Part shown: piece by piece, positions 18,022 through 51,040 of the stretch | Layout: every line of letters begins with the position of its first letter | Numbering within the stretch: position 1 is the first letter of the stretch | Source of the DNA: a virus | Direction: 5' to 3' (one strand) | DNA: 64,000 nt | IMG/VR virus record: IMGVR_UViG_3300049601_000013 | Span: 1 to 64,000 of that record | Notes under the pieces: model-generated | The model's database searches: none | Told to the model about the DNA's origin: nothing | Seen by the model: the letters and a program-made list of their open reading frames with translations, nothing else | Position numbers and translations under genes: made by a program

Positions 18022-18059
18022 AATCTCAGCACAACAACACGACACGACGGGAGATCACG

Positions 18060-19458: not shown

Positions 19459-20520
19459 CTACCGGAGGCGTGCCGCCTCCTCCCAGACCTCCATCCAGCG
19501 ACTCGCGTGCTGGGCGTATGACAGCTTCTGTGCGGCCACACGTGCCTGCAGTCCACGAAGTCGACGGTACGACTCATCTTCCACGAGTCGCTTCAGCTCG
19601 CGGTACCACTCCTTGGGACGTTCGGCGAGAACGCCAATGCCCGTCTCCTCGTGCAGCTTGACGTACTCGGCGCGCGGTGACATGACGCAGGGTACGCCGA
19701 GGGCGGCGTACTCCAGCGGCTTCAGGTACGACTTCGCCGCGTTGAAGCGCGTGTTCGCCAGCGGCGCGATCCCGACTCCGATGCGCGTTACCGCGTGAGG
19801 CCAGTCGTCGATGTGCAGTGAACCCGTCGCCTCAACGTCATCCTCGCCGACTCCGAACGCGGTGGCCACGTGCTCGCGCGGGCCGGCGAAGCGAAAGGTC
19901 GCCCCGTTGTTCACCAGGCGCGCCACCGCGGGACCCACCTCGGGACCGTCGTCCGGGTGCGTCCACGCCGAGCCACACCAGCCGATCGTGTCGTTGTCCT
20001 CGTGCTCGATCTCCAAGTAGTGGTTCGGCACGAAGTTCGGAATGACGCGGGCGCCGTGAACGCCGCGGTACTTAAGCGCCAGCGCGTCACTGGAGACGAC
20101 GGTGAGCGTCGAGTTGCGCGCGGCGGTCTCCACGTGATGCCACGAGTGATCTTGTGTGAGTGTGTTGCCCGCCGTCTTGGGATGAAGTATCTTCCACGCC
20201 GGGTTGTTCGGGTGAATGGACGAGAGGTCATCGTCGATGTCCATGACGACCGCGACGCCCTGCCGACGCATCACCTCGATCGCCTGCGCCAGAAACTTGT
20301 GTGACACCCGTTGAAGCACGATGACGTCGGCATCCGACGGAAGTGACACACGCTTAACGACGCCGTTGGTGATCTCCGCGTGAAACTGGCCACGAGACTC
20401 CGGCGGCATCACCGTGACATCGTAGCCCTGCTTCTTAAGCTCTTCCGCCGGCCAGATGATGCGAAAGTGACCGCAGCCGGTCGCGTCCGCCGGGTAAGCA
20501 TAGATCTTCATACTTACCAC
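19459..20520 (-). CDS. glycosyltransferase, GT-B (GT1/GT4-like)
   Basis: MKIYAYPADATGCGHFRIIWPAEEL..VVMDIDDD..; the C-terminal half has the typical GT-B nucleotide-sugar-binding layout. An alternative ATG lies at 20511. Confidence 0.7.
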   Translation of the reverse strand: MVSMKIYAYPADATGCGHFRIIWPAEELKKQGYDVTVMPPESRGQFHAEITNGVVKRVSLPSDADVIVLQRVSHKFLAQAIEVMRRQGVAVVMDIDDDLSSIHPNNPAWKILHPKTAGNTLTQDHSWHHVETAARNSTLTVVSSDALALKYRGVHGARVIPNFVPNHYLEIEHEDNDTIGWCGSAWTHPDDGPEVGPAVARLVNNGATFRFAGPREHVATAFGVGEDDVEATGSLHIDDWPHAVTRIGVGIAPLANTRFNAAKSYLKPLEYAALGVPCVMSPRAEYVKLHEETGIGVLAERPKEWYRELKRLVEDESYRRLRGLQARVAAQKLSYAQHASRWMEVWEEAARLR

Positions 20521-36231: not shown

Positions 36232-37128
36232 CTAATCGCACGTCAAGGCTACCGGGACCGCATGCAAGCAGCAGTCGTAACCCAGCAGGTAGTTGCGCTC
36301 GGCGATGGCGAACACCGTGTTCACCGAGCGATCCATCGTTTCCACACGCGGGAATGTTCGAACGTCGCTTCGATATCCGAAGATCGGCGGCGTCATGTAC
36401 ATCCAGCGAACACCCTCGGCCAGTGCGCCGTCGGGTCCACTTCCGGTGTAGCCGCCGCTTACCGCGACGAGGTTTCCGGCGCGCGTCATCAGTCGGCCGT
36501 CGACGTCGGTCACGAGCCAGCCGTCTTCCATGAGCGGAAGAATGGCGATCGGCACGTGAATGATTCCTGTGCCGCGGTAGCAGTCGGCGAACGACTCTTC
36601 CAGGAGGCCGAGGGCCACCTCCACGCACGTGGCCGTGCCGGTGACGACGGTTGCCGCCAGCTGGAGAGTGACCTCCGAGGCACCCGCCTCCGCGTCAACG
36701 AGCTCCGTGTCGGCGGCGAGGTGCGGATACACCACATCATTGGAGACGCCGGCGACCCCGGTCCAGAAGGCCCTCTCCACCTCGAACATCTCGTTGCGCA
36801 GCAGCACCTGCTCCGCCCACGCGGTCGAGTCCTCGTAGAACCCCACCGCCGAGCAGTCAACCTGCCCCACGACGGTGAACGGCGTCGCGCCGAATGTGGA
36901 GAGCGTCGCGTTGCCCTCCTTGGGCTCGGGCTCGGCGATGCCCGTGCCGGTCACGGCGTTGTTGAGCACGCACTCGTCGAACGTCGTGGACGCGTCGCCG
37001 CAGATGGCCTGCCACTCCACACCCGCCTGCCAGTGGCTATCGCCGTCGCGCCACTGGACGACGGACTCCAGTCCGAACGGCGTCGGCGTGAAGTCCGCGG
37101 GCGCCACAATCAGCCTTGCGCTGGTCAC
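36232..37128 (-). CDS. virion structural protein (possible second capsid-fold protein)
   Basis: 298 aa, immediately after the major capsid gene. GTG 37128 follows GAGGAGACGTAG. The C-terminal MYMTPPIFGYR...NTVFAIAERNYLLGYD pattern is reminiscent of HK97-fold capsid proteins. Confidence 0.4.
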   Translation of the reverse strand: MTSARLIVAPADFTPTPFGLESVVQWRDGDSHWQAGVEWQAICGDASTTFDECVLNNAVTGTGIAEPEPKEGNATLSTFGATPFTVVGQVDCSAVGFYEDSTAWAEQVLLRNEMFEVERAFWTGVAGVSNDVVYPHLAADTELVDAEAGASEVTLQLAATVVTGTATCVEVALGLLEESFADCYRGTGIIHVPIAILPLMEDGWLVTDVDGRLMTRAGNLVAVSGGYTGSGPDGALAEGVRWMYMTPPIFGYRSDVRTFPRVETMDRSVNTVFAIAERNYLLGYDCCLHAVPVALTCD

Positions 37129-37174: not shown

Positions 37175-38902
37175 TCAGAGGCCGCAGGCGGTGATGTCCG
37201 CCGCGCCCGTCCGGCCGTTGGCGCAGATGTTGATGGTCAGCAGGCGCGACTCGTGTCCGAGCTTGGCGATCAGCCAGCACTCTTCCATCCACGCGGCGGT
37301 GAAGTCGTTCGTCGCGTTGAGGACGGAGTCCCTGATGACGCCGAGGTCCAGGGTCAGGCCGTTGCCGAGCACGAAGGTGCCGGGCGCATACATGAGCGCC
37401 TGCACGGTCGTCGGCCAGGTGAGGATGCCGCCGGTGACGCCCGGCAGTCCCGCGGTGCGGACCTGCCAGTCGCCGACGAACTGGATGCGAATGTCCAGCG
37501 CGTCGAAGAGGCCCTCGATGTACGAGTCGGCGACGGAGAGCAGCTCGACGCCGGTGCGACGGCGAATGTCCGACCGCATCATGTCGAGGATCCAGCGGGG
37601 AAGCACGACCTCGAGAACCGCGTCATCGCACATGGCGAACTTCTCGCGGTAGTCGCGCGCCTGCAGCTCCAGCGCGCCGAGGACGTTGTTGACGACCGAC
37701 TCGCCGACGGCGCCGAGGCCGGTGAAACCCGAGACGGCGACGGATGCGGTGACCAGCTCCTGGATGCGCGACAGGTTCATCTTGTGCGCGTGGAACGCCA
37801 TGAGGAGCTTCATGTGGTTCGCGATGAGCTCGGGGTACGCGTCGTCCATCAGGTTGCCGACGGTGAGGCAGACGCCGTCACACGCGAGACGCTCTTCGGT
37901 GAACGTGGCGCACGGCACGATGCCACACGTCTTGGTACCCGACTGTGCGGTGCCGGTGACCGCCGCGATGTCCTGCGTCTCGGTCCACGTCCAGAGGGCG
38001 GGGTTGCCGGAGAGGCTGGAGAAGTCGGGCGAGATCGGGAACCGGATGCCGCCACGGTTGATGCCGACGGTCGGCAGGTCGAGCATGCCGTCTTCGCAGA
38101 CGATGTTGAACAGGTCGTACGAGATCTCCGACGGCGCGCACCAGCCGCCGGCGGCGACCAGCGCGTCGACGTTGCTGGCCGCGGTGAGAACGTCCGAGAT
38201 CTGCTGCGGCGTCGCCTGGCGGTCGAGGTTGTACTTGAACTGCCGGTTGAGCGACGCGACGGTGTAGCGCGGCGCGTCCTGCCCGCGGGTGGTGGTGCCG
38301 ACGGTGCGCACGCGAGCGTGTGCCGCGGCGACCAGCTGGTTCATGTCGGTGAGACGCGAGCCCTGGGCGAAGCCCGGGATGTCCGCGCTGGCGACGAGAA
38401 CCGACTCCGCGTCACTGCGAGGTCCGGGAACCTCGGGAGCGCGCGCCTGGATGCTCGACAGCGAGACGTTGAGGCGACGCTTGCCACCGACGTTGCGCGG
38501 CTGGGTGCGGCCGGGGCTGTAGTGCCCGCCGGCGGTGACCTCGTCCTGCTCGTCCACTTCTTCCGACCCTTCGGTGGCCATTTCTTGCGTGGTCTCACCG
38601 GCGTCGTCCGCGGCGGACTCGCCACGGCCGTGGACGCGCGCCTGCAGTGCTTCACGGTCGGCGGCGTGCTGAAGCGCCATTTCTTCGCGCGAGGCGATCT
38701 CGGCGCGGATGGTCTCGATGTCGTCGGCCAGCTGGGCCGCCTGCGAGACGGTGTCCGCGGAGACGTCGGCCTCCGGGTCGGCGATCTCATCGAACGCCTC
38801 GACGGCCGCGGCCTCCAGCGCGCGAAGCTCATCATCGCTCAGCGCGGAGAGGTCCTCCGGCAGACCTGCATATCCATTCATGCTTTTCCTTTTCGGAGAC
38901 AT
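37175..38902 (-). CDS. major capsid protein with N-terminal acidic coiled-coil (scaffold/delta-like) region
   Basis: 575 aa. The first ~130 aa are an acidic coiled coil. Contains AAGGWCAPSEISYD, which I associate with actinophage major capsid proteins. It lies downstream of the protease. An alternative ATG lies at 38881. Confidence 0.65.
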   Translation of the reverse strand: MSPKRKSMNGYAGLPEDLSALSDDELRALEAAAVEAFDEIADPEADVSADTVSQAAQLADDIETIRAEIASREEMALQHAADREALQARVHGRGESAADDAGETTQEMATEGSEEVDEQDEVTAGGHYSPGRTQPRNVGGKRRLNVSLSSIQARAPEVPGPRSDAESVLVASADIPGFAQGSRLTDMNQLVAAAHARVRTVGTTTRGQDAPRYTVASLNRQFKYNLDRQATPQQISDVLTAASNVDALVAAGGWCAPSEISYDLFNIVCEDGMLDLPTVGINRGGIRFPISPDFSSLSGNPALWTWTETQDIAAVTGTAQSGTKTCGIVPCATFTEERLACDGVCLTVGNLMDDAYPELIANHMKLLMAFHAHKMNLSRIQELVTASVAVSGFTGLGAVGESVVNNVLGALELQARDYREKFAMCDDAVLEVVLPRWILDMMRSDIRRRTGVELLSVADSYIEGLFDALDIRIQFVGDWQVRTAGLPGVTGGILTWPTTVQALMYAPGTFVLGNGLTLDLGVIRDSVLNATNDFTAAWMEECWLIAKLGHESRLLTINICANGRTGAADITACGL

Positions 38903-38979: not shown

Positions 38980-39150
38980 CTACTTCGACGGTGTGTTGTC
39001 CACCACTTGCGACTGCGAGTTGTAGACGGCGGCGCGCAGCGACTCCAAGTCGCGAAGCAGCCCGTCCTTCTCTTCCTGCTGACGCACGGCCAGCTGCGCC
39101 TCATTCACCGAAGTGACGGCCGTCTTCTTCCGACCACATCCGCATCCCAC
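38980..39150 (-). CDS. hypothetical small coiled-coil protein (56 aa, below ORF-track cutoff)
   Basis: GTG 39150 follows GGGAGGTAGTC, which lies at the protease stop. It translates to MGCGCGRKKTAVTSVNEAQLAVRQQEEKDGLLRDLESLRAAVYNSQSQVVDNTPSK and ends in TAG at 38980. Confidence 0.4.
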   Translation of the reverse strand: MGCGCGRKKTAVTSVNEAQLAVRQQEEKDGLLRDLESLRAAVYNSQSQVVDNTPSK

Positions 39151-39152
39151 GA

Positions 39153-41336
39153 CTACCTCCCACGGACCCGGTTGCGAATTTCATCCATGCGCGACTTGTC
39201 GTCGCGTCCCACGCGGTTCTTCAGGCTGGCGATGACGCTCTGCAGCGCCCTCGTCTCGCCGCTGCTCTGCGTCAGCTTCGGCTTCGGCTTCGCCTCGGCA
39301 ACGATGGTGTAGGGGTTGACGCCCGCCGCGACGAGTGTCGTCTGGACTCCCCGGCGCGCCGCGGTCTTCACCCGCGGAACCGGGAAGCCTGGGACGTTGA
39401 CGGCGAGAAGTGCGATGAGCCGCAGCCCGTTGCCGAAGCGGCGCCAGTCTCCGGACAGCTTCGCGGCGCGCAGCGTGCGCAGGCGCAGGGGCGAGAGGTT
39501 CGGACGAAGTGCTCCGGAGAACCACAGGCCGTACTGGTCCTCGCCGGTGACGACGTCCGCGACCGCCGCGCCGGTGTGGTCATAGTGGTCGATGGCTTGG
39601 ACGGCGGTAAGCTTACCGCCGGTCGACGCGTGACCGGTTCCGAGGGTGATGGTGCCGGTGGCGACGGTGTTCCCGTCCGCCGTCAGCGTCTCTCCCAGCA
39701 TGAAGTACTCGTGGAACCGCTCACGTGGCGGCGTTACGCACTGGCCCGAGAAGCCGGTGTGGCACGTTCCCCAGACGGCGGCGTGTCCGTAGATGCGACC
39801 ATCTTCGGTGACGGTGAGTGGCGTCGGTCCCGCCAGCTTGGGGTCATCGAACCACTCACGAGGCGGCGCCTCATCGGTGCAGCCGCAGGCGGTCAACTCG
39901 GCGCGGGCGTCGATGTGACCGGCGAATTGCGCCTCATCATCCTCATCTTCGTCATCGACGTCGTCTTCCTCCGACGACTCCACGGCCATGCTTACGCTCG
40001 CGGACGCGCGAGGTTCGATGGCGAAGTCGGCGTCATCCGGCTCGACCGTGGCCTCGCCGGCATCCAGCATCTGGCCCTCGAGCGCGATGGACGCCTCCAC
40101 GAAGGCGGGGAACTGGACGAGCGTCGCGCCGCGCAGTCGACCGCGGTGAAAGATCGTCAGCTCCGGCGCGGCGAAGAGGTCGCCGAATCCCTCGGCATCC
40201 GCGGCCGCGTCAGACTTCGGGAAGACGAGCTCGACATCCGAGTCCTTGACCGAGTCGACGTCGCCGGACACGCCGCGCAAGAACTTCTGCTCGACCTGGC
40301 GGTACGCCTCGGCGCCGTCATCCCCCTCCAGGTCGAAGACTCCGCGTCCCCAGATCTCGTTGTTCTCGCGCCAGAGCTCATCGATGCGGCCGGCCTGGAC
40401 CGCGGTCTTGTGCCCCTCATCGGTCTGCTTCTGCCACATGAGCGGCAGCGGAAGCGGCGCCGAGCGCAGTGAGCCCTCCGCAAACATGCGACCGTCGCCC
40501 GACTCAACCCCCTCGACGATGAGGACACCGGACCACGCGCCAACCTCGCCGGGCGCCGCCTGGACATCACTTGCGACGTCCGAAGAAGCCTGCGTCACGT
40601 TCATCACCTCATTTTCGCGATCATTGTAGCGCATCGTGAAGCTTTGTTCAGTCGAGTAGCTCTCATCGTCGTACGTCTCATCCGCATTCACCGGCTCTGC
40701 GTCGGCAGCCTCGAAGTTGTCGGTGAGGTCGAAGTCGTAGACCTCATCACCCATGGCCAGTCGAATGCGGTCAAATGTGATGTCCCCGGTGCGGTCAGCC
40801 AGCGACTCCACGAGCGAGTGATCATCGGTGTACGCGAGCGTCACGTGTGGGATCCACGGCTCGTGTTGCTCCGGAATCGCGACGCTGTGGTCCGTCATTC
40901 GGCCGAGTACGCGCTCTCGAATCTTTCGGCAGATGTCGTGAAGACCCGCACCGCTCAGCCCCAGCGTGATGCACGTGTCACGTTCAACGTTGTGGGGGTT
41001 GAACAATGACACGTTAAAGCCGTCCGCGACGACGGGGCCGGTCTCTTCGTCGGCGATCTCGGCGAGCTCGGACAACATCACGTTGAATGACTCTTCGGTG
41101 TGCTCACCGATGTCACCCAGGAAGATCACCGTGCAGTGAAGGTCCTCGCCGTACTCACCTCCGTCGAGCATAAGTCGCTCGGCGTTGCCCACCGTGGGGA
41201 TCAGGGCGATCATGCCGTTGTGAGAGTTGTCGCCCGCGGCGGTTAGCTCTTCCGCCTCCGGCGCACTGAGCACCAGGTCCACGTTGTCCGGGTCCGTGAC
41301 CGCGGTAAGCGTCGTTTCTTCCGTGGGCATCGTCAT
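39153..41336 (-). CDS. capsid maturation protease with N-terminal 2H-phosphoesterase (LigT-like) domain
   Basis: Two HxTx motifs, DLHCTVIFLG and IPHVTLAYT, lie about 97 aa apart. Then come prohead-protease-type segments LIVEGVESGDGRMFAEGSLRSAPLPLPLMWQ and GRIYGHAAVWGTCHTGFSGQCVTPP. Confidence 0.75.
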   Translation of the reverse strand: MTMPTEETTLTAVTDPDNVDLVLSAPEAEELTAAGDNSHNGMIALIPTVGNAERLMLDGGEYGEDLHCTVIFLGDIGEHTEESFNVMLSELAEIADEETGPVVADGFNVSLFNPHNVERDTCITLGLSGAGLHDICRKIRERVLGRMTDHSVAIPEQHEPWIPHVTLAYTDDHSLVESLADRTGDITFDRIRLAMGDEVYDFDLTDNFEAADAEPVNADETYDDESYSTEQSFTMRYNDRENEVMNVTQASSDVASDVQAAPGEVGAWSGVLIVEGVESGDGRMFAEGSLRSAPLPLPLMWQKQTDEGHKTAVQAGRIDELWRENNEIWGRGVFDLEGDDGAEAYRQVEQKFLRGVSGDVDSVKDSDVELVFPKSDAAADAEGFGDLFAAPELTIFHRGRLRGATLVQFPAFVEASIALEGQMLDAGEATVEPDDADFAIEPRASASVSMAVESSEEDDVDDEDEDDEAQFAGHIDARAELTACGCTDEAPPREWFDDPKLAGPTPLTVTEDGRIYGHAAVWGTCHTGFSGQCVTPPRERFHEYFMLGETLTADGNTVATGTITLGTGHASTGGKLTAVQAIDHYDHTGAAVADVVTGEDQYGLWFSGALRPNLSPLRLRTLRAAKLSGDWRRFGNGLRLIALLAVNVPGFPVPRVKTAARRGVQTTLVAAGVNPYTIVAEAKPKPKLTQSSGETRALQSVIASLKNRVGRDDKSRMDEIRNRVRGR

Positions 41337-42340
41337 GATATCACCTGAAGTCGTACGGCCGGACGTCCGGATGGTGTGTTGCGGTTGACCTCCAGGACGC
41401 GGAACCGCGTGCGCGGTCCCAAGATAAGCTCCTGCTCATCTTGAATCGCCGCACGTGATCCCGTGAAGATCGCGGGGGTTCCCGCCGGTACCTCGATCTG
41501 CATGTCCACATCTCCGAAGATCTCGGTGACGCTTGGGTCCAGCGACGTACTAGAGAAGCCGTTGTCCGAGATGTCGAACCCCGCCAGCCGCTCGAGGTCG
41601 TCGATGGACGTCGCGCCGCCGAGGTGCTCCAGGTTCGTCGATCGGAAGACGGTGACCGGCTCGCCCAAGGGCCGCAGCGCGTCGCGAAGCTGGCCGTTAC
41701 GCGTGTTCGCCTCGGCCGTGCAGCTCTGCCCGGTGCGCAAGCACTCGTTCATGTCGTGGTACGCCGTCACCGAGTAGTCGCGCACGGTCTGCTCTTGCTC
41801 GGGCGTCAGGGGCGGCGGGTTCTGCGACTCCATCTCGCCCTGAATGGCTTCCAGGTCACCCGCGTCGCGCGTTGGGAAGTCCGTATCGACGGCCAGGGGA
41901 GCGGTCGACTCGTGGGGACCGGGGCCGGCTGAAGGCGCCGCCGACGGCGCGTTGGGATCGGGCGCGTTCGGATTGGGCGCCGAGGCGGGTGCGGCCGGCG
42001 GCTGGTCCTCCGCCTCTCCCACACGCCAGCCAAGCTTCGTGAGGAGGTACGTCGCGAGCTTGCCTCGCTTGCCGATCGACTGCCACGAGCCGTCGGGCTG
42101 CCGCACCTGCTGGTCGAACTGGCCGGTGCCTGCGTCGTACACCATGCGCTGCGTGCCGTCCTCCGACACGTGCGTGACGTCGCCGTCGGCGTGCTGGCGA
42201 AAGACGTTGGCCTCGGGGTTGTTGCGCGCTCGCAGCGGCGGAGGCACGAAGAAGCGCGCGGCCTTCTTAGCGAAGCGGCCTCCCTTACCTCGCTTATGCT
42301 TCTTTTCGTCGTAGCGTCCTCGCCGCGCGAGCGTGTCCAT
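41333..42340 (-). CDS. ADP-ribosyltransferase-domain protein (R-S-ExE type), short paralog
   Basis: C-terminus has VTVFRSTN, NGFSSTSLD and QDEQELILGPRTRF. The N-terminus has GRFAKK and a DGTQRMVYDAGTGQF...PDGSWQ module shared with the 1267-aa protein. The ATG forms a TAATG overlap. Confidence 0.7.
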   Translation of the reverse strand: MDTLARRGRYDEKKHKRGKGGRFAKKAARFFVPPPLRARNNPEANVFRQHADGDVTHVSEDGTQRMVYDAGTGQFDQQVRQPDGSWQSIGKRGKLATYLLTKLGWRVGEAEDQPPAAPASAPNPNAPDPNAPSAAPSAGPGPHESTAPLAVDTDFPTRDAGDLEAIQGEMESQNPPPLTPEQEQTVRDYSVTAYHDMNECLRTGQSCTAEANTRNGQLRDALRPLGEPVTVFRSTNLEHLGGATSIDDLERLAGFDISDNGFSSTSLDPSVTEIFGDVDMQIEVPAGTPAIFTGSRAAIQDEQELILGPRTRFRVLEVNRNTPSGRPAVRLQVIS

Positions 42341-42825
42341 TACTTGTCTCGCTTCTCGCCGGGCCAGTGGCCGGTCGCCTCGTGGTAGAGGTTGGCGCAC
42401 AAGCCCTCAACGTTTGACGGAAAGTGCTCGCGCAGCTCGCTGGTGCAGCGTCGGAACGAGCCCTCCGTGCCCCACCTGATCTTCGCCGCGCCCTCGCCAC
42501 GAAGCCAGTAGTCTTGAAGCTCACGAGGCATGCGCGACTGCAGCTCCGTTCGCGCCGCCTGCGCGACGGGTCCGGTGACGTCGACGTTCCACCCAGCTGA
42601 TGCCAACACTTCATTCACGTGGGCGGCGGGCGTCTGAAAGATGGCCGCGTACTGCTCGTCAGTGAGACCATTGTTGTCGAGGTCTTCGTCCTCGACGGGA
42701 TTCTCCGGCGACGGCGGCTCCTCCCGAATGAAGAGCGCGTTTTCCGGGTCAGAGACGCTCGTCAGAACGCCCGGGTACGCGGGCTGGTAAGTGGCCCACG
42801 GGTCTTCGTCGGTCGGCGTTGTCAT
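42340..42825 (-). CDS. hypothetical head-module protein
   Basis: N-terminal MTTPT..SVSDPENALF leader. C-terminal YWLRGEGAAKIRWGTEGSFRRC...GLCANLYHEATGHWPGE is a conserved actinophage head-module motif. Confidence 0.55.
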   Translation of the reverse strand: MTTPTDEDPWATYQPAYPGVLTSVSDPENALFIREEPPSPENPVEDEDLDNNGLTDEQYAAIFQTPAAHVNEVLASAGWNVDVTGPVAQAARTELQSRMPRELQDYWLRGEGAAKIRWGTEGSFRRCTSELREHFPSNVEGLCANLYHEATGHWPGEKRDK

Positions 42826-45800
42826 GCGGGAATGACCTCCACTCGTACGCGTGCGTTGCTGCCGTCTTGCACTACTTCGAGAATGCGAAAGCGTGTTCCC
42901 GGTGCCAAGAGAAACTCCCGTTCACCTGGAAATTGACTTACGTTGGCGACGTAAGCTCCTCGCGTGCCCGGAGGAATCTCAATCTGCATGGCGACCGAAC
43001 CGTTAAACGCACTACCTGGGTTGATTGACGTGCTGGAGAATCCGAGATCGCGAACGACATCACCGGTCATGTTTTCCAACTCACTGACGCTCGACACACC
43101 GAACATCTCGAGGTCCGTACCCCGGAACGTCGTGATTGGCTCAGTGGTCGGACGCATCGCCTCAGTGGCCCGCGCGATTCGTCCCTTCACACTTGGCGTG
43201 CAGTCGAATGCTTTATTAAGGCGCAAGCACCTATTTATAGACTTGTACCCACCACCTGTGTAGCTTACCACGGCAGAGTGTTGCGCGTTGGTCCACGACG
43301 GCGGGCTGTTCACCATCATATTATACTGAAGTTGCGTCGCTTGCGACTCATTAAGAATGGCGTAGTTAGGGTTCGGTGGGAACGGCGTGGAACCGATAAC
43401 TCCTGGAATGCCCGTGGGTGATACGGACGGGAGTGTGGGCGTCGGTGTCGGAAAGGAGTTTCCGGCAAGATGGCCCATTACTTTATTTTCAAACAAGCTC
43501 CCATTCGGCACACCCGCTTGCGCGGCCTTCTTTTCATCCACGATCTTTAGAACTTGCTCGGGCGTCAGGCCCACGCTGTTGGCGACGTCGGCGGCCTTCT
43601 GCGCCAGCGCCTGGGGAGAGTCACTTAGCGACATCATGCCGGAAGTGAACTGGAAGAATGCTTGCGTCTGTATCAGCGGTGGCACGCCGGTGATGCTAGG
43701 GTCAGGCGAAGTCGTGGCCGCAGGCGCAGACGAGGGTGTCGGCGTTGGGACGGCCGCACCAGGCGACGCCGGCGGTGGCGTTGATGCGACCGGTGCGGCG
43801 GCCGCCGTACCCAGCTTCGCCTGGATGTGCGCCTTACCCTTGGACGACTTGGACCACTTAGCGATCTTCGCCTGGATCGGCTTCCCGCCGTCCTTCGACG
43901 AGTTGTGGAAGTTCGCGTCCGCATACTTCAGCACATCCTCGATGGACATGCCGGTCGCCTGCGACGCCGCGTACGCGGCGTCAAAGAGCGACTCTGAAGA
44001 GTTGTACCAGTTGACGCCCGCATTTTGAAACTGCGCGTGTACGTCATTCTGCTGCGCGGGCGTCAGCTGTGGTACACCGTTGGCGTCGTACGTCATCGCA
44101 GGCGGAGTAGGTGGTGTGGGCGGCGTAGGCACGGGCGTCGCGCTGGTGATCGGAGAGATGTCACCTTCGGGCAGTGTCACACTTGCGCCACCTGACACAT
44201 TAATGGTGTACGTGCCTCCGGGGTTCGCTGACACGACGGTGCCGGTTCCGTACATCGTGGAAACCGCAGTTCCGGGAGCATGCGATGTGGTTGCGGTCGG
44301 CGCCGGCGCAGGCGTGATCACACTTAGATCATTTACGTTAAACATAGCGGTGGCTCCGCCGGGAAACTCCACTTGCGCCATTGTGCCACTTGGCGCCATG
44401 TTTGTGACTACGCCCGTACCGTCAGGTGTGCTGACTTCGGCGCCAATAGCCGGAAGACTCGGGTCAGTCTCTGACATGTCATCAAACTCACTGGGCTTCA
44501 GCCACAATATGCTACCGTCGGGGCCGGACACCTTGATGAACAGCATGCCGGTGACGTCTGCCTTGACCTCATCAAGTATGGTGTATTCATCAGGTGGTGA
44601 GCCCACCTTCGTACCCGGCTTAGGCACCGTGTCCACAAGCGCTGCTTGCGCATCGCTGAGCTTTACGGGAACGCTCATGGGCACAATCACACTACTACCA
44701 TCGGGAAGTTGAAGCTGAATTCCCGTACTTCCGTTAGGCAGTGTGCCGGTTCCCATGACAGTGCCTACGGTGCCACTTATCGTCTTTACCTTGACGCCAA
44801 CGCCCACTCCGATGTTTGCCCCCGGAATCGGTCCACTTATCGCCGGTGCCGGTGCCGGTGTGGGGTCAATGGCGGGATTCACGGCATTATTGTATGCCTC
44901 CGCCACCTTTACGCTGTGTTGCGGCGTCCACGACGTGCCGTACTTTTCCTTGTACTTATGTGTCTCCACCTCCAGCTGGTCGGCGAGTTCATCACCCAAT
45001 GCAGTGTCACCGTTGGCGTACGCCTCGAGTACTTGGCTGTGTGCATTGGCGATTTTCATGCTGGCATTCGCCTGCACCGTAAGATCAATTAGGCTGTATG
45101 GCTCACCATTGAGTGCTTGTGTTGCGGGAGCATTTGTGGCGCTAAACGTCTTAGCGGTGGTTTTCTTAGCGGTCTTTTTCGCGGGAATGGCCACCGTCGG
45201 AGCCGGAGCTATGGTTGGCGTCGGTGGCGTGACGGCCGCCGCGGCCTTCTTAGCGGTGGCAGCTGCCTTCTTAGTCGCCGCAACGGTTGGGTAGACCGAT
45301 GACGGAAACGGTCCACCTCCGAGCTTTTCCTTCATCGTGTCTGAGATGAGGGTGTCTCCGCGCTGCTCGTCCATGAGCGCGACGACGTGTTCGGGAGCGA
45401 CGTTGTACGTCTGCGCGATGTTCGCGATGTACTGCGCCATCAAGTCGGCAGACATCGTCTCCGGCTTGGGCATCTGTGTCTTCGCCGACGTCAAGATCTG
45501 AAGCACCTTGAACGGCGTGATTCCCGCACCTGAGACGTCATTCCAGCCGGGTGCAAAGGGCCCTGTGATAGGAGCGGTGGGAGCGGCGACCGGCGTGAGC
45601 TCTTCGGTCGTGCCGTCGTGCGGGTCTTCCCACAAGGCACTCAGCTCGTTTGCCTTCTTATACGCGGCGCCCTTGCCCAGGACGTCGATGACCTCCCAGC
45701 CGCCGTCCGGTGTACGACGCTGCACCGTCCAGTTGTTGCCGGCGGCGTTGAAGATCATGCGGTGCTGGCCGTCAGCGGACGCGATGATGGTGCCGTTTGG

Positions 45801-46625
45801 GTGCTTACCGTAGATGACCTTGTTGGTCATCTTCTTTCCACCGGAAGCCGTAGTCGTGGGGGTCGGCGCGGGCGCAGGTGAAGCACCAGGTGTGGATGAA
45901 GCGGTGGGAGCAGAGGTAGGCGTTGCGGCCTTCTTAGCCGATGCTTTCTTTCCGGCACGAGATGTAACGAGTGGTGATACGTTGCCCTCGGTGGTGCCAA
46001 GGGTGAGATCAGTTACCTTTTCTTTCTCACTCGATGTTGAACCCTCCGGCGTGACGACGACCTCAACGACGCCCACACTGGCATTGAAGGTGGGATAGCT
46101 TGTGACGATTCCTACTAGGCCACTCGGCAGCACGACCGACGTACCAGGCGGAGGTGCATCGGCGAACTGCTTACGCTGTGCCGCAGTCATCTTATGAATA
46201 TCGGACGCGAAGTGCTCTTCTTGTGTTCCGTCCGGAAGTTCAACGATGACCGAGTCAAGACCAAACTTGCCCTTCTTATGTGAAAGAATGCGTCCGATAC
46301 CGCCACCGGTGAGTGCCACCGTGTCATTGACGTGCACGCCCGACTCTGCGCCCGGCACTTGCTCGCCACGTGATGGTGTCGGCGCCGCACTCTTTGAGCC
46401 GGCCTTCTTAGCAAAGCGTCCCTTGGAGTCGCGCTTTACCTCACCCTCCGTGAAATCCGGATCCGCCGCAGCCGTCAGGGCCTTGATGAGCGTCGCGTAC
46501 GTCGTCATCTTCGGCCGACGAACGCTCGCCACCGTCTCCGTAGGCGCGGGCGCGGGCATCTCAACGACCCACATGACGTTGTCAGGGTCGGTCAGTGGCG
46601 TGATTTTTGGCGTAGGCGTGGTCAT
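42822..46625 (-). CDS. giant modular protein with C-terminal ADP-ribosyltransferase domain (R-S-ExE)
   Basis: C-terminus has YTGGGYKSINRCLR, ITTFRGTD, LGFSSTSINP and PGEREFLLAPGTRF. Upstream are repeated SH3/KOW-like beta modules, three helical modules and Ala/Pro/Thr linkers. Confidence 0.75.
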   Translation of the reverse strand: MTTPTPKITPLTDPDNVMWVVEMPAPAPTETVASVRRPKMTTYATLIKALTAAADPDFTEGEVKRDSKGRFAKKAGSKSAAPTPSRGEQVPGAESGVHVNDTVALTGGGIGRILSHKKGKFGLDSVIVELPDGTQEEHFASDIHKMTAAQRKQFADAPPPGTSVVLPSGLVGIVTSYPTFNASVGVVEVVVTPEGSTSSEKEKVTDLTLGTTEGNVSPLVTSRAGKKASAKKAATPTSAPTASSTPGASPAPAPTPTTTASGGKKMTNKVIYGKHPNGTIIASADGQHRMIFNAAGNNWTVQRRTPDGGWEVIDVLGKGAAYKKANELSALWEDPHDGTTEELTPVAAPTAPITGPFAPGWNDVSGAGITPFKVLQILTSAKTQMPKPETMSADLMAQYIANIAQTYNVAPEHVVALMDEQRGDTLISDTMKEKLGGGPFPSSVYPTVAATKKAAATAKKAAAAVTPPTPTIAPAPTVAIPAKKTAKKTTAKTFSATNAPATQALNGEPYSLIDLTVQANASMKIANAHSQVLEAYANGDTALGDELADQLEVETHKYKEKYGTSWTPQHSVKVAEAYNNAVNPAIDPTPAPAPAISGPIPGANIGVGVGVKVKTISGTVGTVMGTGTLPNGSTGIQLQLPDGSSVIVPMSVPVKLSDAQAALVDTVPKPGTKVGSPPDEYTILDEVKADVTGMLFIKVSGPDGSILWLKPSEFDDMSETDPSLPAIGAEVSTPDGTGVVTNMAPSGTMAQVEFPGGATAMFNVNDLSVITPAPAPTATTSHAPGTAVSTMYGTGTVVSANPGGTYTINVSGGASVTLPEGDISPITSATPVPTPPTPPTPPAMTYDANGVPQLTPAQQNDVHAQFQNAGVNWYNSSESLFDAAYAASQATGMSIEDVLKYADANFHNSSKDGGKPIQAKIAKWSKSSKGKAHIQAKLGTAAAAPVASTPPPASPGAAVPTPTPSSAPAATTSPDPSITGVPPLIQTQAFFQFTSGMMSLSDSPQALAQKAADVANSVGLTPEQVLKIVDEKKAAQAGVPNGSLFENKVMGHLAGNSFPTPTPTLPSVSPTGIPGVIGSTPFPPNPNYAILNESQATQLQYNMMVNSPPSWTNAQHSAVVSYTGGGYKSINRCLRLNKAFDCTPSVKGRIARATEAMRPTTEPITTFRGTDLEMFGVSSVSELENMTGDVVRDLGFSSTSINPGSAFNGSVAMQIEIPPGTRGAYVANVSQFPGEREFLLAPGTRFRILEVVQDGSNARVRVEVIPA

Positions 46626-48823
46626 ACGACAACCCTCAAGCGAACGACCGACGGGTCACCGTCAGTGGCGGGTGGGATGACTTCCAAGATCTCATAGCGC
46701 GTGCTGGGTGGCATGACCAGCTCATACTCTTCGGTGTTCTCGGTGATGTTCTCGACGTATGCGGCGGGAGCACCGGCGGGAGTCTCGATCTGCATGAGCA
46801 CCGCCTGGCCAGGTGGTGGCGCCGATGAGCCGTGTGTGAAAGACTCCGCCACCTCCGAGTCGATTGAGCTGCTGCTAAAGCCAGGGTCACGCACGACGGC
46901 GCCGACCATTCCCTCGAGTGCCGCGACGTTCCCGACGCCCAGCGCCTGCAGGTTGGCTCCTCGGAACGTCGTTACGCCGCGTGGAAGTGGCCGCATACCC
47001 GCGGTCGCGTTCTCATTGAGCGTCTCAACGTCGTCATCGCAGCCCTCATCGAACCGCAGGCAGTTGTTCATGTCGCGATATGATGACCCCGTGTATGTGA
47101 CGAGTCCACTTTGTTCAGCGGATGTCCACGGCTCATCGTCAAGCATCTCTTGCTGCAGCGCGTCCATCTCCGCGGGCGACGCCCGCGGAAAGTCTTCATC
47201 CACATCCAAGAACGGCGTGCCGCGAATCTCGGAGTCCGCACCGGCGGAGGGAGGAGCGGTCGCGACCGCGAAGTCATCACCGGCGAGCGCGTCGATGCCG
47301 AAGGGCTGCGCCAAGATGTCTTCGAATCCGTCGCTGTCCTCGATGACTTGCGCCGCATCCGGTGAGACGTTCTCCAGCGACTGCGGAGAGTCGTCAAACT
47401 GGACGCGAATGTTCTCGTTGAGCCCGTCGGATCCCGCATCCGCGACGCGAACAGTTCCCGCACGGTTGCCCACGACGACACGGTCGCCGGGGAGCGCGTA
47501 CACCCCCTCCGCTACGGAGAGGCTGTCGAGTACATCTTGGTCCACCTGGACGAGCGGAGCCGCCGGCGAGGGAGGGCCGGTCGTTGGCTCGATCGTGATG
47601 TCATCCGGCTCCGGCTCCGGCTCCGGAGTGGGCGGAGGCGGAGGCGCCGCGGGTGCGGTCTTCTTTCCCGGAACCTTCTTCGCGCTCTTCTTCGCCGGCG
47701 GTGGTGCCACCGGTGCGGGTGTCGGCGGGGGTGGCGTAGGCGCCGGAGCCGGTGCGGCCGGAGTGGGCGCCGGCGCCGGCGGTGGCGTTGGCGCGGGAGC
47801 CGTCTTCTTCGCGGGCGGCGGTGCAGCCTTCTTCGCCGGCTTCGTGTAGTCGATCTTTGGGGCGGCCTTCTTCGCCGGCTTCTTGTAGCTGATCTTCTTG
47901 CCGGAACCCGGCTTCGGAGCGAAGCGTCCCTTGTCCCGGTTCACCTTCGACTCATCGAATGGCCTACGAGCAAGCTCGTTAAGCTGCACCGCCGCGGTCA
48001 GCGAGTCGAGGTCGACGAAGTTCGCGGGGTCGAACTCGTCGGTCACGTCCGGGAGGTCGTCCAGCGCGAGCGTCAGCTCGGACTTCTTAACGTCGAAGGT
48101 CATCGTGCAGCGGCAGTTGATGACGCAGCCGGGCTCACCCTGCGGGTCGCCGGGAAAAGCCAGCGCCTCGCCACAGACGATGAACACGTTGTTGACGCTT
48201 ACCGTCTGGCCATTGGCCTTGCGATGTGCCTCACGCGTGCGATCATCCTTGGTGGCGAGCCACGTCTTCTTCGCGATGACGCCAGTCGACATGATCTCGT
48301 CCAGCGCGCCGGCGTTGCTGGCAGAGATGATCTCCGTCCGCGCCACCGTCTCGGCGCGCGAGCGGCTCCAGTCGGTGACACCCTGAAGTCGCGTCGCGAG
48401 CTGCTCCGTCGACTCGCCCGCCCGGAAGCCCTCGATCAGCTGTGCACGCGCGCGGGCCCACGTTCCCTCGGTGACGCCCACCATGCGGTTTGCGGCGTCG
48501 ATCAGGTAAGCAACCGCCGCGGACTGCGACACGAAGGGAACGTCGGCGTTGGCGAGGGTGACGAGCTGCAGGTGCGTACGCTCCGCCGAGCCGACGTACT
48601 CATCCACGACCCGCGGAAAGAAGTGGTCATTGACCGCTCCTCGCCAGGCGGCCCGCGCCTGGTCGAGAATGACCCGCTCAGGTCGCTCGGCGGCCGCCGT
48701 GATAGTCGACTCGAGGGCGGCCGTCGCGCGTCGCAGAATGCCACTCAACGTCGTGAACATGTCGGCAGCGAGGGCGTCCGCGTGGCGCTGTAGCTCGGTC
48801 TCGGGCGCCATCTTGAGCTTCAT
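46622..48823 (-). CDS. MuF/SPP1 gp7-like head morphogenesis protein fused to C-terminal ADP-ribosyltransferase domain
   Basis: MuF core ETVARTEIISASNAG...WLATKDDRTREAHRKANGQ...CVINCRCTM, then a Pro/Ala/Lys linker. C-terminal YTGSSYRDMNNCLR, TTFRGAN, GFSSSSID and TEEYELVMPPSTRY. Confidence 0.8.
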   Translation of the reverse strand: MKLKMAPETELQRHADALAADMFTTLSGILRRATAALESTITAAAERPERVILDQARAAWRGAVNDHFFPRVVDEYVGSAERTHLQLVTLANADVPFVSQSAAVAYLIDAANRMVGVTEGTWARARAQLIEGFRAGESTEQLATRLQGVTDWSRSRAETVARTEIISASNAGALDEIMSTGVIAKKTWLATKDDRTREAHRKANGQTVSVNNVFIVCGEALAFPGDPQGEPGCVINCRCTMTFDVKKSELTLALDDLPDVTDEFDPANFVDLDSLTAAVQLNELARRPFDESKVNRDKGRFAPKPGSGKKISYKKPAKKAAPKIDYTKPAKKAAPPPAKKTAPAPTPPPAPAPTPAAPAPAPTPPPPTPAPVAPPPAKKSAKKVPGKKTAPAAPPPPPTPEPEPEPDDITIEPTTGPPSPAAPLVQVDQDVLDSLSVAEGVYALPGDRVVVGNRAGTVRVADAGSDGLNENIRVQFDDSPQSLENVSPDAAQVIEDSDGFEDILAQPFGIDALAGDDFAVATAPPSAGADSEIRGTPFLDVDEDFPRASPAEMDALQQEMLDDEPWTSAEQSGLVTYTGSSYRDMNNCLRFDEGCDDDVETLNENATAGMRPLPRGVTTFRGANLQALGVGNVAALEGMVGAVVRDPGFSSSSIDSEVAESFTHGSSAPPPGQAVLMQIETPAGAPAAYVENITENTEEYELVMPPSTRYEILEVIPPATDGDPSVVRLRVVV
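47590..47900 (-). repeat. Pro/Ala/Lys low-complexity linker with a ~32-nt imperfect direct repeat
   Basis: gccttcttcgccggcttcgtgtagtcgatctt and gccttcttcgccggcttcttgtagctgatctt encode KIDYTKPAKKAAP and KISYKKPAKKAAP. PAP/PPP runs flank them. Confidence 0.55.
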
Positions 48824-50451
48824 TACGGACGAGTCCTCTCGGCGATCTCGAGAAAGCGACGGTCGACGGCGCTCTCACCGGGCGGTGGTGGAGGCGCCGT
48901 GGACGTCTCCGGTGGACCGAGAGACGGTGCACCGGTGGCCGGCTGGGGTACGGGGAGGTTCGCACCGGGCGGGGTCGTGGATTCCTCGCCCTCACCGCCG
49001 GCCACCGGAGTTCCTGTAAGCATCTCGAACGAGTTGACTACCTGCTGGCCGTTGTACGCCAGCTTCGTCAAGATCTGCTCGTCGCGCTCTGCGTCCGTGG
49101 GAGCGTCGGCGTCATCGAAGCCGGTGACTCGCCGAAGCGCGGCGTTGGAGATCGCGACCCGGTCGTGCAGCTGGACCGCACGTTCTCCGAGGTCGGGCTT
49201 CTTCTCAAGTTCGGATGCGTCGTACCAGACGACGTAGCGTACGCCGTCGTCATCCTCACCGTCATCATCCTGGTCGGTGTCGGCGGCGTACTCCGCGAGA
49301 CTCTGACTCGACAGACCCGGCTGGAGGTAGCCCACGGTCAAGCCGCGGCAGATCGTTTCCACGGTGGGTAGCACGTGAACCTTGATCGCCTGCTCTTCGA
49401 TGTTCCACGCACTCCAGTGGTTCACATCTCCCATTCCCGTGAGAACCTCGGCCGGGACGTTGAGTATCTTGGCCAGTCGACCCAGCGCGCGGTCGCGCCC
49501 GTCAAGCGTCTCCGCGACGACGTTATCCGAGAAGCGGATGTGCTTGAACTTGTCGATGAACTCCGACGCGACGCGCATCGGAATGGGCAGTGCGGCCGCG
49601 GCGCTCCCCGGGTTCTGAATCGCCTTCGACGCAACATCGATCCACTCAGAGATCAGCGGGTCCGCCGCGTCGGAGAACTCATCACGAACGGGAAACGTGA
49701 CCTCATCCGGAATCAGCCAGACGCCGTTGCTAGCGACGCGGGCGGTTAGCTCGGTGATGATCTTACGGTTGTAGAGGTCGACCTCACGCATCACGCCAAG
49801 CGCGGGCTCCGTCGGCGAGATGGCGAGCCACGGGAACTGCTCGTCGGGGTTCCAGATGCGTACGACCAGCGACTCCGCCGGCAGCGGGACCCACGCGGAC
49901 TCGTCGACGCGGATCGCGAAGTTTCCGCTGTTGTCCTTGCGAACGACGTCGGTCGAGTAGACGCCACTGTGCGTGTTGCCATCATCATCTTCGTACATGA
50001 TGAAGTACGCATCACCCGCGATGTCAAGCTTCACGGAAAAGCTCTTCATCAAGACCGACTGGCCGCCCACGCCCTCGGCGAGCTTGTCCATAAGCTCGGC
50101 GGCGGGACCCTCTTCCACGATCTCCGGCTCATCCGAGCCGGGCACGATCTTCGCCGCCTTCAATCGGACGCGCGAGACCGCGTTGCCCTTCCACTCGGTG
50201 GCATACCAGAGCTCACCTTGAGTGCGCCAGTTGTCCCACGCCTCATCCTGCCAACGCTTCGACTGGATGGTTGTGCCGCGGTCGGCGCGCAGTACGGCGG
50301 CCGCGGCGGTAAGTGAGTCGCGTGGCGCACGCGCCGCGGCGCGTCGCTCACGGCGGGTCAGCTTCCGGTGCGCGGGAACGCGTGAAGCCACGACCTCCGT
50401 GGACATGACACGAGCTCGGCCTCGCGCCGATGAGGTCTTGCGCCACGCCAT
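48823..50451 (-). CDS. portal protein
   Basis: 542 aa from ATG 50451 (after GGAGGTAGTAGG). The WQDEAWDNWRTQGELWYATEWKGNAVSRVRL pattern and its position upstream of MuF are typical of actinophage portals. Confidence 0.75.
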   Translation of the reverse strand: MAWRKTSSARGRARVMSTEVVASRVPAHRKLTRRERRAAARAPRDSLTAAAAVLRADRGTTIQSKRWQDEAWDNWRTQGELWYATEWKGNAVSRVRLKAAKIVPGSDEPEIVEEGPAAELMDKLAEGVGGQSVLMKSFSVKLDIAGDAYFIMYEDDDGNTHSGVYSTDVVRKDNSGNFAIRVDESAWVPLPAESLVVRIWNPDEQFPWLAISPTEPALGVMREVDLYNRKIITELTARVASNGVWLIPDEVTFPVRDEFSDAADPLISEWIDVASKAIQNPGSAAAALPIPMRVASEFIDKFKHIRFSDNVVAETLDGRDRALGRLAKILNVPAEVLTGMGDVNHWSAWNIEEQAIKVHVLPTVETICRGLTVGYLQPGLSSQSLAEYAADTDQDDDGEDDDGVRYVVWYDASELEKKPDLGERAVQLHDRVAISNAALRRVTGFDDADAPTDAERDEQILTKLAYNGQQVVNSFEMLTGTPVAGGEGEESTTPPGANLPVPQPATGAPSLGPPETSTAPPPPPGESAVDRRFLEIAERTRP

Positions 50452-50455
50452 CCTA

Positions 50456-51040
50456 CTACCTCCGAGCGAGTACGACTTGGTAACGGCCTGCGGTCTCGTG
50501 CCGAACGACGTTCCAGCCGCCGCTCTCAATCATGGCGCGGTAGCCGGGCATGTCCCACGCCCACGCGTGCACCGCGTCATGTGACGCCTCAGTCTCATCC
50601 ACGGGCGATGATGCGATCAAGACGCGGACGCCCGCGTTCCGGACGGCGCGAACCAGGTCGTGAGGCCGAGCCACGTGCTCGAGAACCTCGAGCATCGTGG
50701 TGACGGTCCCAAGCTCTGGCCGCTCGACGGTGAAGTCTTGCAGGCGCACGTCCACCCCGCGCTCCGCCGCTCCCACGACGTTGGCCGGGCAGAGGTCGTA
50801 ACCCCACGCGCGTTCCACGAACGGCGCCACGAGGGTCAAGAACCCGCCGTCGCCCGCTCCCAGGTCCGACAGCGTCGGACGCGCGTACCAGTTCTCAGCC
50901 GCGCGTACGCAGTCGAGCGCGAGGTCCATGCGCGGCCGATGGTGCGTCTGCTCCAGGTGCGGGGCGCGCTCGCGGTCGCGGTGAAACTCGGCGGTGCTGA
51001 CGTGCGGCACCGTGTTCTCCTCGAAGAGTCGCCACTCCAT
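50456..51040 (-). CDS. class I SAM-dependent methyltransferase-like protein
   Basis: LSDLGAGDGGFL (motif I) and VTTMLEVLEHVARP. ATG 51040 overlaps the upstream TGA. Confidence 0.6.
   Translation of the reverse strand: MEWRLFEENTVPHVSTAEFHRDRERAPHLEQTHHRPRMDLALDCVRAAENWYARPTLSDLGAGDGGFLTLVAPFVERAWGYDLCPANVVGAAERGVDVRLQDFTVERPELGTVTTMLEVLEHVARPHDLVRAVRNAGVRVLIASSPVDETEASHDAVHAWAWDMPGYRAMIESGGWNVVRHETAGRYQVVLARR

Follow-up and report, generated by a model that had tools for sequence, protein, structure and literature searches.

Phosphoesterase domains of the 2H superfamily that are fused to MuF or portal proteins of phages have been predicted to be packaged in the head and injected, either as degraders of 2'-5' or cyclic nucleotides or as RNases (PMC5512222, section 'The 2H phosphoesterase domain'; PMC9503650, section 3.4.5). 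Iyer et al. name MuF and portal proteins as the 2H partners and mention a capsid serine peptidase for Nudix fusions only (PMC5512222; PMC9503650). Here we analysed 64,000 nucleotides (nt) of viral DNA (IMG/VR record IMGVR_UViG_3300049601_000013, positions 1 to 64,000; hereafter the window, 64 kb of a 92-kb genome), in which one open reading frame (ORF) of the head-assembly module encodes a 2H phosphoesterase domain directly ahead of a prohead protease. We refer to its product as the 2H-protease. Such a protein is not new, since 2H head proteins are present in hundreds of actinophages and their role was predicted in 2017; the particular arrangement here is a leader and a 2H domain placed directly on the protease.

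The first-pass annotation of this DNA had noticed two HxTx motifs about 97 amino acids (aa) apart and had read them as a 2H (LigT/CPDase) fold fused in frame ahead of the protease. The positions of both motifs were exact (H67 and H164; Table 1). Their spacing of 97 aa, in hydrophobic strands, lies within the ~80-110 aa that characterise the 2H superfamily. H67, T69 and H164 were invariant in 69 of 69 related 2H domains, and the position of T166 was occupied by threonine in 50 of them, by cysteine in 15 and by alanine in 4. The second motif sits inside a signature of the clade, PEQHEPWIPHVTLAY. When aa 1-215 were searched, the Pfam model PF13563 (2_5_RNA_ligase2) scored 29.5 bits (expectation value, E, 9e-7; gathering cut-off 27), with a weaker match to PF02834 (LigT_PEase; E 1e-3); against the full-length protein, PF13563 scored 26.3 bits, just below its cut-off. 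PHROG 2659, named 'RNA ligase', matched the same residues (E 1.4e-27). A profile of the 2H domain searched against PDB sequences matched mostly 2H proteins, each weakly.

We modelled the 2H domain with AlphaFold2 from a ten-sequence input. The mean predicted local distance difference test (pLDDT) score was 78; the core (aa 40-205) was mostly above 85, and the ends were disordered (aa 1-37, pLDDT <50, and aa 208-215). Foldseek comparison of this model with the PDB returned 2H-fold proteins at all of ranks 1-49, with a probability of 1.00. The top matches were LigT-like proteins of Pyrococcus and Thermus (1vdx, 1iuh; E 4e-7 to 2e-6), and LigT of E. coli (5ldm) was also among them. Further 2H matches were AKAP18, the 2'-5' phosphodiesterases of rotavirus and of the coronavirus MHV, and the penguinpox cyclic GMP-AMP (cGAMP) phosphodiesterase. 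The phosphodiesterase of Burkholderia phage BCSR5 (PDB 9q2g) was a good match as well; a literature search on this enzyme found nothing. Fold prediction had been proposed in the first pass as a check, and the model obtained is a 2H fold whose matches include Acb1, LigT and AKAP18. The Pfam match, the AlphaFold2 model, the Foldseek results and the invariant His, Thr and His thus bear out the in-frame 2H fusion. From the fold, the intact conserved motifs and the Pfam and PHROG matches, we conclude that the domain is real and folded and, with both motifs intact, almost certainly catalytic. Judged by sequence and model, aa 1-205 are an intact 2H phosphoesterase of an actinophage-specific clade.

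The remainder of the protein (aa 216-727) matched PHROG 18402, 'head maturation protease', with an E of 9e-72, and also the PHROG for portal fusion proteins (E 1e-94). A tblastn search with this part gave 1099 phage records; the matches listed were all head-assembly genes, mostly annotated as capsid maturation protease. The gene has the portal/MuF genes on one side and the major capsid protein (MCP) gene on the other, as do prohead protease genes of the HK97/T4 type. No protease model of Pfam or NCBIfam matched aa 216-727, and a sequence-profile search of this part against the PDB gave no match. The model (pLDDT 71) showed two folded modules (aa 267-419 and ~486-645) with an acidic disordered linker between them and a helical tail. 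Its best Foldseek matches were T4 gp21 (E 0.017, probability 0.94) and herpesvirus assemblins, with template modelling (TM) scores that are low because the query has two domains. Invariant columns were seen at S357 (module 1) and at H569, H584 and S628 (module 2). Both modules resemble by eye the pattern of HK97 gp4 (S78), for which hhalign gave a weak match of 27 columns (HK97 gp4 residues 79-105, to module 2). An hhalign comparison of module 1 with module 2 was not significant, and a tandemly duplicated protease fold is suggested by eye only. On sequence and model, we accept aa 216-727 as a prohead protease, possibly of the HK97/T4 type (assemblin fold, S78/S77), in which either module may be the active one. 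In proteases of the HK97 gp4 type the C-terminal tail docks to the capsid or scaffold, and by analogy the tail of the 2H-protease may dock it in the same way.

An identical fused protein (P0010) was present on 6 contigs, the four shown coming from four different samples; the longest is a JGI contig of 92 kb (Ga0497538_000001), to which the window evidently belongs. Of the 120 cluster representatives nearest to the protease part, 56 had an N-terminal 2H domain in the same architecture. An assembly or annotation artefact was rejected on these two grounds. The novelty implied by the first-pass annotation was overstated, since the architecture is common and the automatic annotation of the Joint Genome Institute (JGI) had already named the same protein '2'-5' RNA ligase'. 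Among cultured phages, 332 records contained the 2H domain. In Streptomyces phages TurkishDelight (gp15), TP1604 and relatives it lies within a 'capsid maturation protease and MuF-like fusion protein'. The order was MuF-2H-protease in Microbacterium phage Marcie gp27 and Arthrobacter phage Ranunculus gp18, and protease module-2H in Gordonia phage RiverRaider gp18; the 'putative structural protein' (Orf10) of Gordonia phage GMA2 has the 2H domain at its C-terminus. A standalone 'RNA ligase' gene was found in ~200 Bxz1-like (cluster C) mycobacteriophages and in Pupper-like Gordonia phages, and it lies between the portal and the large head proteins in the two examined, Catera and Pupper. Two metagenome contigs of 66 kb that are close relatives, L004 and L006, had a separate 2H gene of 235-242 aa situated 4-38 nt upstream of the protease gene. 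The best Foldseek matches of the 2H model in BFVD were large actinophage head proteins. When the 20 kb surrounding the gene were compared with phages by megablast, the result was just 60-bp scraps in Gordonia phages and no close cultured relative. The 2H clade occurs standalone between portal and protease, inserted between MuF and protease or, as here, fused ahead of the protease. Its constant trait is the tie to the head-assembly module; several arrangements interchange, and fusion to the protease is one of them.

The leader of the 2H-protease carries a tag of the form (A/P)(L/V)(T/S)DPxN(V/A)hhhV. The 2H-protease, a 1267-aa ADP-ribosyltransferase (ART) protein and a 161-aa protein all start with MT(T/M)PT..., followed by (A/P/S)(L/V)(T/S)DP(D/E)N(V/A) and a hydrophobic run. 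The tags are at positions 41297, 42753 and 46592 (minus strand), each at the N-terminus of its ORF (starts at 41336, 42825 and 46625), and a six-frame translation of the window gave the tag in frame only at these three head-module N-termini. The 161-aa protein has the leader VLTSVSDPENALFI, and the 1267-aa protein has MTTPTPKITPLTDPDNVMWVV ... KALTAA↓ADP (arrows mark candidate cuts). The tag was conserved in ~40 homologues; we also observed it on standalone 2H proteins, on an ART protein of L004 and on a 282-aa protein of no assigned function on contig L019, in a survey across cargo domains that covered the fetched loci. Longer versions of the leader add TE(D/N)EAYAFL and end in GGLTAAG. A 28-position leader profile matched only 9 short fragment proteins among 1.84 billion representatives and 4 fragments in a 5.8-billion library, and tblastn of the 28-aa tag against phages gave no match. 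The distribution of the leader suggests a capsid-targeting propeptide, and the LTA[A/C] motif described next suggests that it is removable.

The motif LTA[A/C] occurred 6 times in the 4684 aa of eight head-module proteins, compared to 0.34 expected from composition, and 0 times in the remaining 13157 aa of window proteins. The sites lie at predicted domain borders or in disordered linkers (Table 1). A cut at the MCP site would remove a scaffold-like N-terminal part and leave a mature protein of ~335 aa. This site was conserved in L004, L006 and a further related contig, L018, and equivalent sites were present in the protease and cargo proteins of these contigs. Equivalent LTA-type sites were also found in Marcie gp27 (between MuF and 2H) and in RiverRaider gp18. 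In 57 of 96 homologues, h-(T/V)-A-(A/S/C/G) was found 8-15 aa upstream of module 2 (LTA[ACSL] in 22, h-x-A-[ACS] in 35). The assemblins of herpesviruses, homologous to the prohead proteases of phages, cut by a V/L-x-A↓S rule, and this rule resembles the h-(T/V)-A↓(A/S/C/G) motif before module 2. The linker contains V-Q-A↓A at aa 256-259, with V-x-A↓S at the same place in close homologues, and this may be a secondary cleavage site. By analogy, we infer that LTA[A/C] is a candidate cleavage motif of the prohead protease and that leader and motif together may form a propeptide/cleavage-site system. As far as our searches show, there is no earlier description of the shared leader and LTA↓A motif.

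Table 1. Coordinates of the 2H-protease, its parts, the candidate cleavage sites and the neighbouring head-module genes (arrows mark candidate cuts)
Feature	Position in window (nt)	Strand	Residues and sequence	Basis or remark
2H-protease, whole ORF	39153..41336	-	727 aa	leader, 2H phosphoesterase, two protease-like modules, helical tail
Leader	41235..41336	-	aa 1-34: MTMPTEETTLTAVTDPDNVDLVLSAPEAEELTAA	tag, then candidate cleavage motif LTAA↓G; disordered in model
2H phosphoesterase core	40722..41222	-	aa 39-205	AlphaFold2, Foldseek against PDB and BFVD, PF13563, PHROG 2659
Catalytic motif 1	41130..41138	-	H67-C68-T69 (LHCTV, within DLHCTVIFLG)	H67 codon 41136-41138
Catalytic motif 2	40839..40847	-	H164-V165-T166 (PHVTL, within IPHVTLAYT)	H164 codon 40845-40847
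Acidic disordered linker	40545..40721	-	aa 206-264	pLDDT <50
Protease-like module 1	40077..40544	-	aa 265-420: VEGVESGDGRMFAEGSL ... LRGVSGDVD	Ser357 invariant; high pLDDT; PHROG 859 and 21470
Disordered acidic linker	39882..40076	-	aa 421-485	pLDDT <50
Protease-like module 2	39402..39881	-	aa 486-645: PPREWFDDP...TVTEDGRIYGHAAVWGTCH...GTGHA...HYDHTG...GEDQYGLWFSGAL...KLSGDWRR	PHROG 18402
C-terminal tail	39156..39401	-	aa 646-727	basic; ends in two helices (~aa 692-724)
LTAA, 2H-protease, first site			aa 31; EELTAA↓GDNSH, aa 29-39	directly before 2H core
LTAC, 2H-protease, second site			aa 481; AELTAC↓GC, aa 479-485	linker before module 2; candidate autoprocessing site
LTAA, 1267-aa ART protein			aa 50	after leader
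LTAA, MuF-ART			aa 275	just past MuF domain
LTAA, portal			aa 73	near N-terminus
LTAA, MCP			aa 239-242; ISDVLTAA↓SNVDA, aa 235-247	12 residues before GGW motif
Portal protein	48823..50529	-		weak Pfam portal match; synteny with annotated phages
MuF head protein fused to ART (MuF-ART)	46622..48823	-		PF04233 and PF03496
1267-aa ART protein	42822..46625	-	1267 aa, low-complexity, C-terminal ART	PF03496, E 1e-23
161-aa protein with leader	42340..42825	-	161 aa
Upstream ART protein	41333..42400	-	355 aa as ORF, 335 aa as called on JGI and Logan contigs	PF03496, E 5e-15
56-aa ORF	38980..39150	-	56 aa; starts VGCGCGRKK	between protease and capsid genes
Major capsid protein (MCP)	37175..38902	-	575 aa	PHROG 777, E 2e-138

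The head-module genes are transcribed in the order portal, MuF-ART, 1267-aa ART protein, 161-aa protein, ART protein, 2H-protease, 56-aa ORF and MCP, with overlaps of 1-4 nt at all junctions from MuF-ART through 2H-protease. The ATG of the 2H-protease and the stop codon of the ART gene before it share the sequence ATGA, an overlap that denotes translational coupling. Five related metagenomic contigs keep this gene order, the 2H gene being preceded by one or two ART proteins. The first-pass annotation had correctly placed ADP-ribosyltransferases next to the 2H gene: three ART proteins lie among the head-assembly genes. It had further proposed that the domain processes ADP-ribose cyclic phosphate (Appr>p) or RNA ends in concert with them, and this claim proved weak. 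The ARTs of the window (PF03496) belong to the Alt/VIP2 exotoxin type and not to KptA/Tpt1, so that Appr>p is not expected. No ART domain was found in the three cultured fusions checked (TurkishDelight, RiverRaider and GMA2), and no RNA ligase, polynucleotide kinase-phosphatase (Pnkp), RtcB or KptA turned up when the window's 20 larger non-head ORFs were scanned. A KptA-type ART partnership making Appr>p was rejected on the type of the ARTs and on the cultured fusions checked.

Several observations concern the neighbouring genes themselves. The 335-355 aa ART looks like a compressed paralogue of the 1267-aa ART, both having KGRFAKKA and DG..RM...A..G.......PDG.W. The C-terminal part of the 161-aa ORF (YWLRGEGAAKIRWGTEGSFRRC...GLCANLYHEATGHWPGE) is the counterpart of the domain with which the protease proteins of L004 and L006 begin; here that domain has thus been separated from the protease, and the 2H domain joined to it. 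On L006, a 1920-aa MuF-Nudix-ART polyvalent protein (4242-10004) lies directly upstream of the standalone 2H gene and adds a further NAD/ADP-ribose-related cargo domain. A small ORF of 47-59 aa between the protease and capsid genes is conserved (L004 12805-12972, L006 13272-13433, L018 12184-12363, L019 12767-12937 and, on contig L020, 9609-9752), and its start, (M/V)(G)CGCG(K/R), resembles the residues following the LTA↓CGC motif of the protease linker. The capsid proteins of L006 and L018 share with that of the window a C-terminal ending of the form (L/I)TACG(L/I/V), a motif that recurs in the protease linker. Directly after the capsid gene is a 298-aa ORF (36232-37128, minus strand), conserved in related contigs at 298-310 aa; at the equivalent position RiverRaider has a gene annotated as 'major capsid pentamer protein'. 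Judged by gene position, the phage may use separate hexamer and pentamer capsid proteins.

Elsewhere in the window, a replication/nucleotide block (2171-18971, plus strand) runs opposite to the structural genes. It encodes a thymidylate synthase-like protein, a family A DNA polymerase (PolA) with 3'-5' exonuclease, an SNF2 helicase, a PD-(D/E)XK nuclease, an AAA_24 ATPase, a dUTPase_2, a C-5 cytosine DNA methylase, a peptidoglycan-binding-domain protein and a DUF932 protein. A group-1 glycosyltransferase and a GDP-mannose 4,6-dehydratase/epimerase-like protein (19459-20520 and 63072-63809, minus strand) may serve glycosylation of the virion or of the host surface.

We compared the 2H domain with the Acb1, LigT/ThpR and Usb1 proteins. 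The Acb1 model PF23474 scored 12.6 bits against a gathering threshold of 27 (E 0.12) and covered aa 158-189 only. TIGR02258 (RNA 2',3'-cyclic phosphodiesterase), the sole NCBIfam match, scored 20.4 bits against a cut-off of 65.7. Membership of the Acb1 or the ThpR family was rejected because both thresholds were missed. By Foldseek, the Acb1 structures 7t27 and 7t26 matched the 2H model with E of 8e-5 to 1e-4, and Usb1 structures were among the top matches (E 2e-5, TM-score ~0.53-0.60). By sequence, the 2H domain is about equally far from Acb1 and ThpR. It falls in an actinophage clade of its own, and homology does not reveal the substrate.

Polyvalent effectors are recognised by an effector domain fused to, or lying among, head proteins; here the 2H domain is fused to the protease and ARTs adjoin it. 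We propose that the 2H-protease is a late product whose translation is coupled to that of three ADP-ribosyltransferase proteins, and that it would enter the procapsid by way of its protease tail and/or the N-terminal leader ALTDPxNV... that it has in common with the ART proteins. The protease would trim the leader at LTAA↓G and perhaps also cut VQA↓A in the linker and LTAC↓G before module 2. Being too large for the capsid pores, the folded 2H domain would stay behind as an internal head protein and be ejected with the DNA into the next host. In the new host, and late in the producing cell, it would hydrolyse a 2',3'-cyclic, 2'-5' or 3'-5' phosphodiester by a metal-independent two-histidine mechanism. 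Whichever its substrate, we put the chance of this packaged-effector model at about even.

As to role, an Acb1-like degradation of the small nucleotide second messengers of abortive infection (cyclic oligonucleotide-based antiphage signalling systems, CBASS; type III CRISPR; Pycsar-like) has a substantial chance, somewhat short of even. Action as an RNase or in RNA-end processing, the two taken jointly, is a tentative second. Action in the producing cell only seems distinctly improbable. These estimates divide one total over substrate and site of action and are separate from the one given for the packaged-effector model. Host RNA or RNA ends are nearly as likely a substrate as second messengers. 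The pre-packaged degrader of signalling nucleotides that the first-pass annotation had put forward is plausible by analogy and not original, having been anticipated by Iyer et al. (2017, 2022).

A wider idea, modular cargo loading, is one we would offer with considerable reserve. The propeptide ALTDPxNVxLVVV (sometimes with TEDEAYAFL, and ending in LTAA↓G) would send interchangeable enzymes (2H, ARTs and other domains) into the procapsid, the prohead protease would clip it, and the arsenal would be injected with the DNA. The 2H domain would be the first to meet the alarm signals of the next host and would also be an in-cis antidote to protease-triggered CBASS. Prohead proteases activate the CD-NTases of CBASS by cleavage, late in infection (Hobbs and Kranzusch 2026, preprint, PMC12991175). 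By analogy, a 2H nuclease joined to a protease that may trigger CBASS would be an attractive pairing.

Several points weigh against a packaged degrader of second messengers. There is no canonical LTA[A/C] between the 2H domain and module 1, which makes it uncertain that a free enzyme is released. The cleavage motif is a post hoc finding, and the MCP ends in ...GAADITACGL (37175-37192, minus strand), where cutting makes little sense. Proteases of the HK97 type usually digest themselves and their fragments exit the capsid; the fused 2H domain could therefore be degraded too. In sequence and predicted fold the domain is at least as near to LigT, 1vdx and 1iuh as to Acb1, and the family-level thresholds for Acb1 and ThpR were both missed. 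With 64 of 92 kb seen, an RNA ligase elsewhere in the genome is possible. In the literature we found no virion proteomics, including of LigT-like proteins, and no enzymology for any member of the clade.

The nearness to LigT would fit RNA-end healing, in which a LigT/ThpR-like 2',3'-cyclic phosphodiesterase opens, for repair, the cyclic ends left on tRNA or mRNA by metal-independent host RNases (anticodon nucleases, HEPN or MazF-type toxins, Csm6/Cas13). The best sequence and fold matches are of the archaeal/bacterial LigT type (1vdx, 1iuh, 5ldm), TIGR02258 is the only NCBIfam model matched and the database name of the relatives is 'RNA ligase'. However, the TIGR02258 score is far under its cut-off, the scan of the 20 larger non-head ORFs found none of the four repair proteins, a 2'-phosphate product would block RtcB-type ligation, and a conserved position in the head module is not usual for phage RNA-repair genes. 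Iyer et al. (2017, PMC5512222) also report that 2H domains of this kind never occur together with RNA ligases. We consider healing unlikely.

An offensive RNase of the Usb1/Mpn1 type, injected alongside the ARTs, would instead cleave or trim the RNA of the host, with cyclic phosphates left at the ends. Iyer et al. (2017) favoured such an activity, as the 2H-MuF and 2H-portal fusions parallel the architectures of PBECR RNases (PMC5512222). The host-modifying ART effectors adjoin the 2H gene here, and Usb1 is among the top fold matches, although this likeness is generic to the superfamily and Usb1 does not share the clade signature (PEQHEPWIPHVTLAY, FNP). This reading, too, has a low probability in our estimate.

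Action confined to the producing cell would dispense with packaging. The 2H domain, made late, would destroy the cyclic-nucleotide alarm signals provoked by the prohead protease; the fusion would serve co-expression or stoichiometry, and the domain would be degraded or remain outside the capsid. HK97-type proteases usually self-destruct and leave the capsid, the gene is in a late operon and translationally coupled, and prohead proteases trigger CBASS late (PMC12991175). The common leader and the neighbouring polyvalent ARTs speak instead for capsid loading, standalone 2H copies retain both the leader and the head-module position, and such action is compatible with the packaged-effector model. 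That the 2H domain is a catalytically irrelevant, scaffold-like structural spacer, or an artefact joining two genes that lie 4-38 nt apart in close relatives and that a lost stop codon could fuse, is effectively refuted by the identical protein on 6 contigs, the fusion common to 56 cluster representatives, the invariant catalytic His, Thr and His and the high-confidence model.

If the 2H domain is packaged and active, as the packaged-effector model holds, an enzyme already made, directed at the nucleotide signalling or the RNA of the host, would enter with ADP-ribosylating toxins as a counter-defence in force before phage gene expression. This prediction dates from 2017, and the cultured relatives Marcie, Ranunculus, TurkishDelight and the Bxz1-like phages (gp92) offer systems in which to test it. 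The leader and LTA↓A motif, if confirmed, would give a rule to spot capsid cargo and protease sites in actinophage genomes and a handle for loading foreign proteins. Many database entries named 'capsid maturation protease' or 'RNA ligase' hide or mislabel a 2H domain.

Among known systems, the internal proteins and Alt of phage T4 carry a capsid targeting sequence (CTS) that the gp21 protease removes at L/I-x-E. The locus described here likewise has a short N-terminal leader on several head-encoded enzymes or effectors, including ARTs, followed by a recurring candidate cut motif. It differs in that leader and motif have no sequence relationship to their T4 counterparts, that one cargo is covalently joined to the protease and that packaging and cleavage are predictions here. 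Acb1 (T4 gp57B family) is also phage-encoded and has the 2H fold with two HxT motifs, but it is a small, free, non-structural protein of ~150 aa, and the window 2H domain is nearer to the LigT type. The LigT/ThpR proteins (5ldm, 1vdx, 1iuh) are the best matches and have the same motif-1 context, H-x-T-h-x-F-L-G; the 2H domain of the window differs from them by its clade-specific second motif, PEQHEPWIPHVTLAY, and by a context of head assembly, not RNA repair.

The actinophage fusions (TurkishDelight, TP1604, Marcie, OneinaGillian, Ranunculus, RiverRaider, Tardus, MelBins and GMA2) have homologous 2H domains in which both His motifs are present (hmmsearch E from 1e-14 to 1e-51) and homologous protease modules in the same portal-to-MCP slot. 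They differ in having identities of <40% and the orders MuF-2H-protease, protease module-2H or C-terminal 2H, and most of their records do not mention the 2H domain. The 2H-MuF and 2H-portal fusions of Iyer et al. share with the 2H-protease the superfamily, the embedding in head assembly, the MuF-ART neighbours, the proposed role and, as far as the scanned ORFs go, the lack of an RNA ligase partner, whereas here the partner is the prohead protease and the 2H domain stands at the extreme N-terminus behind a short leader.

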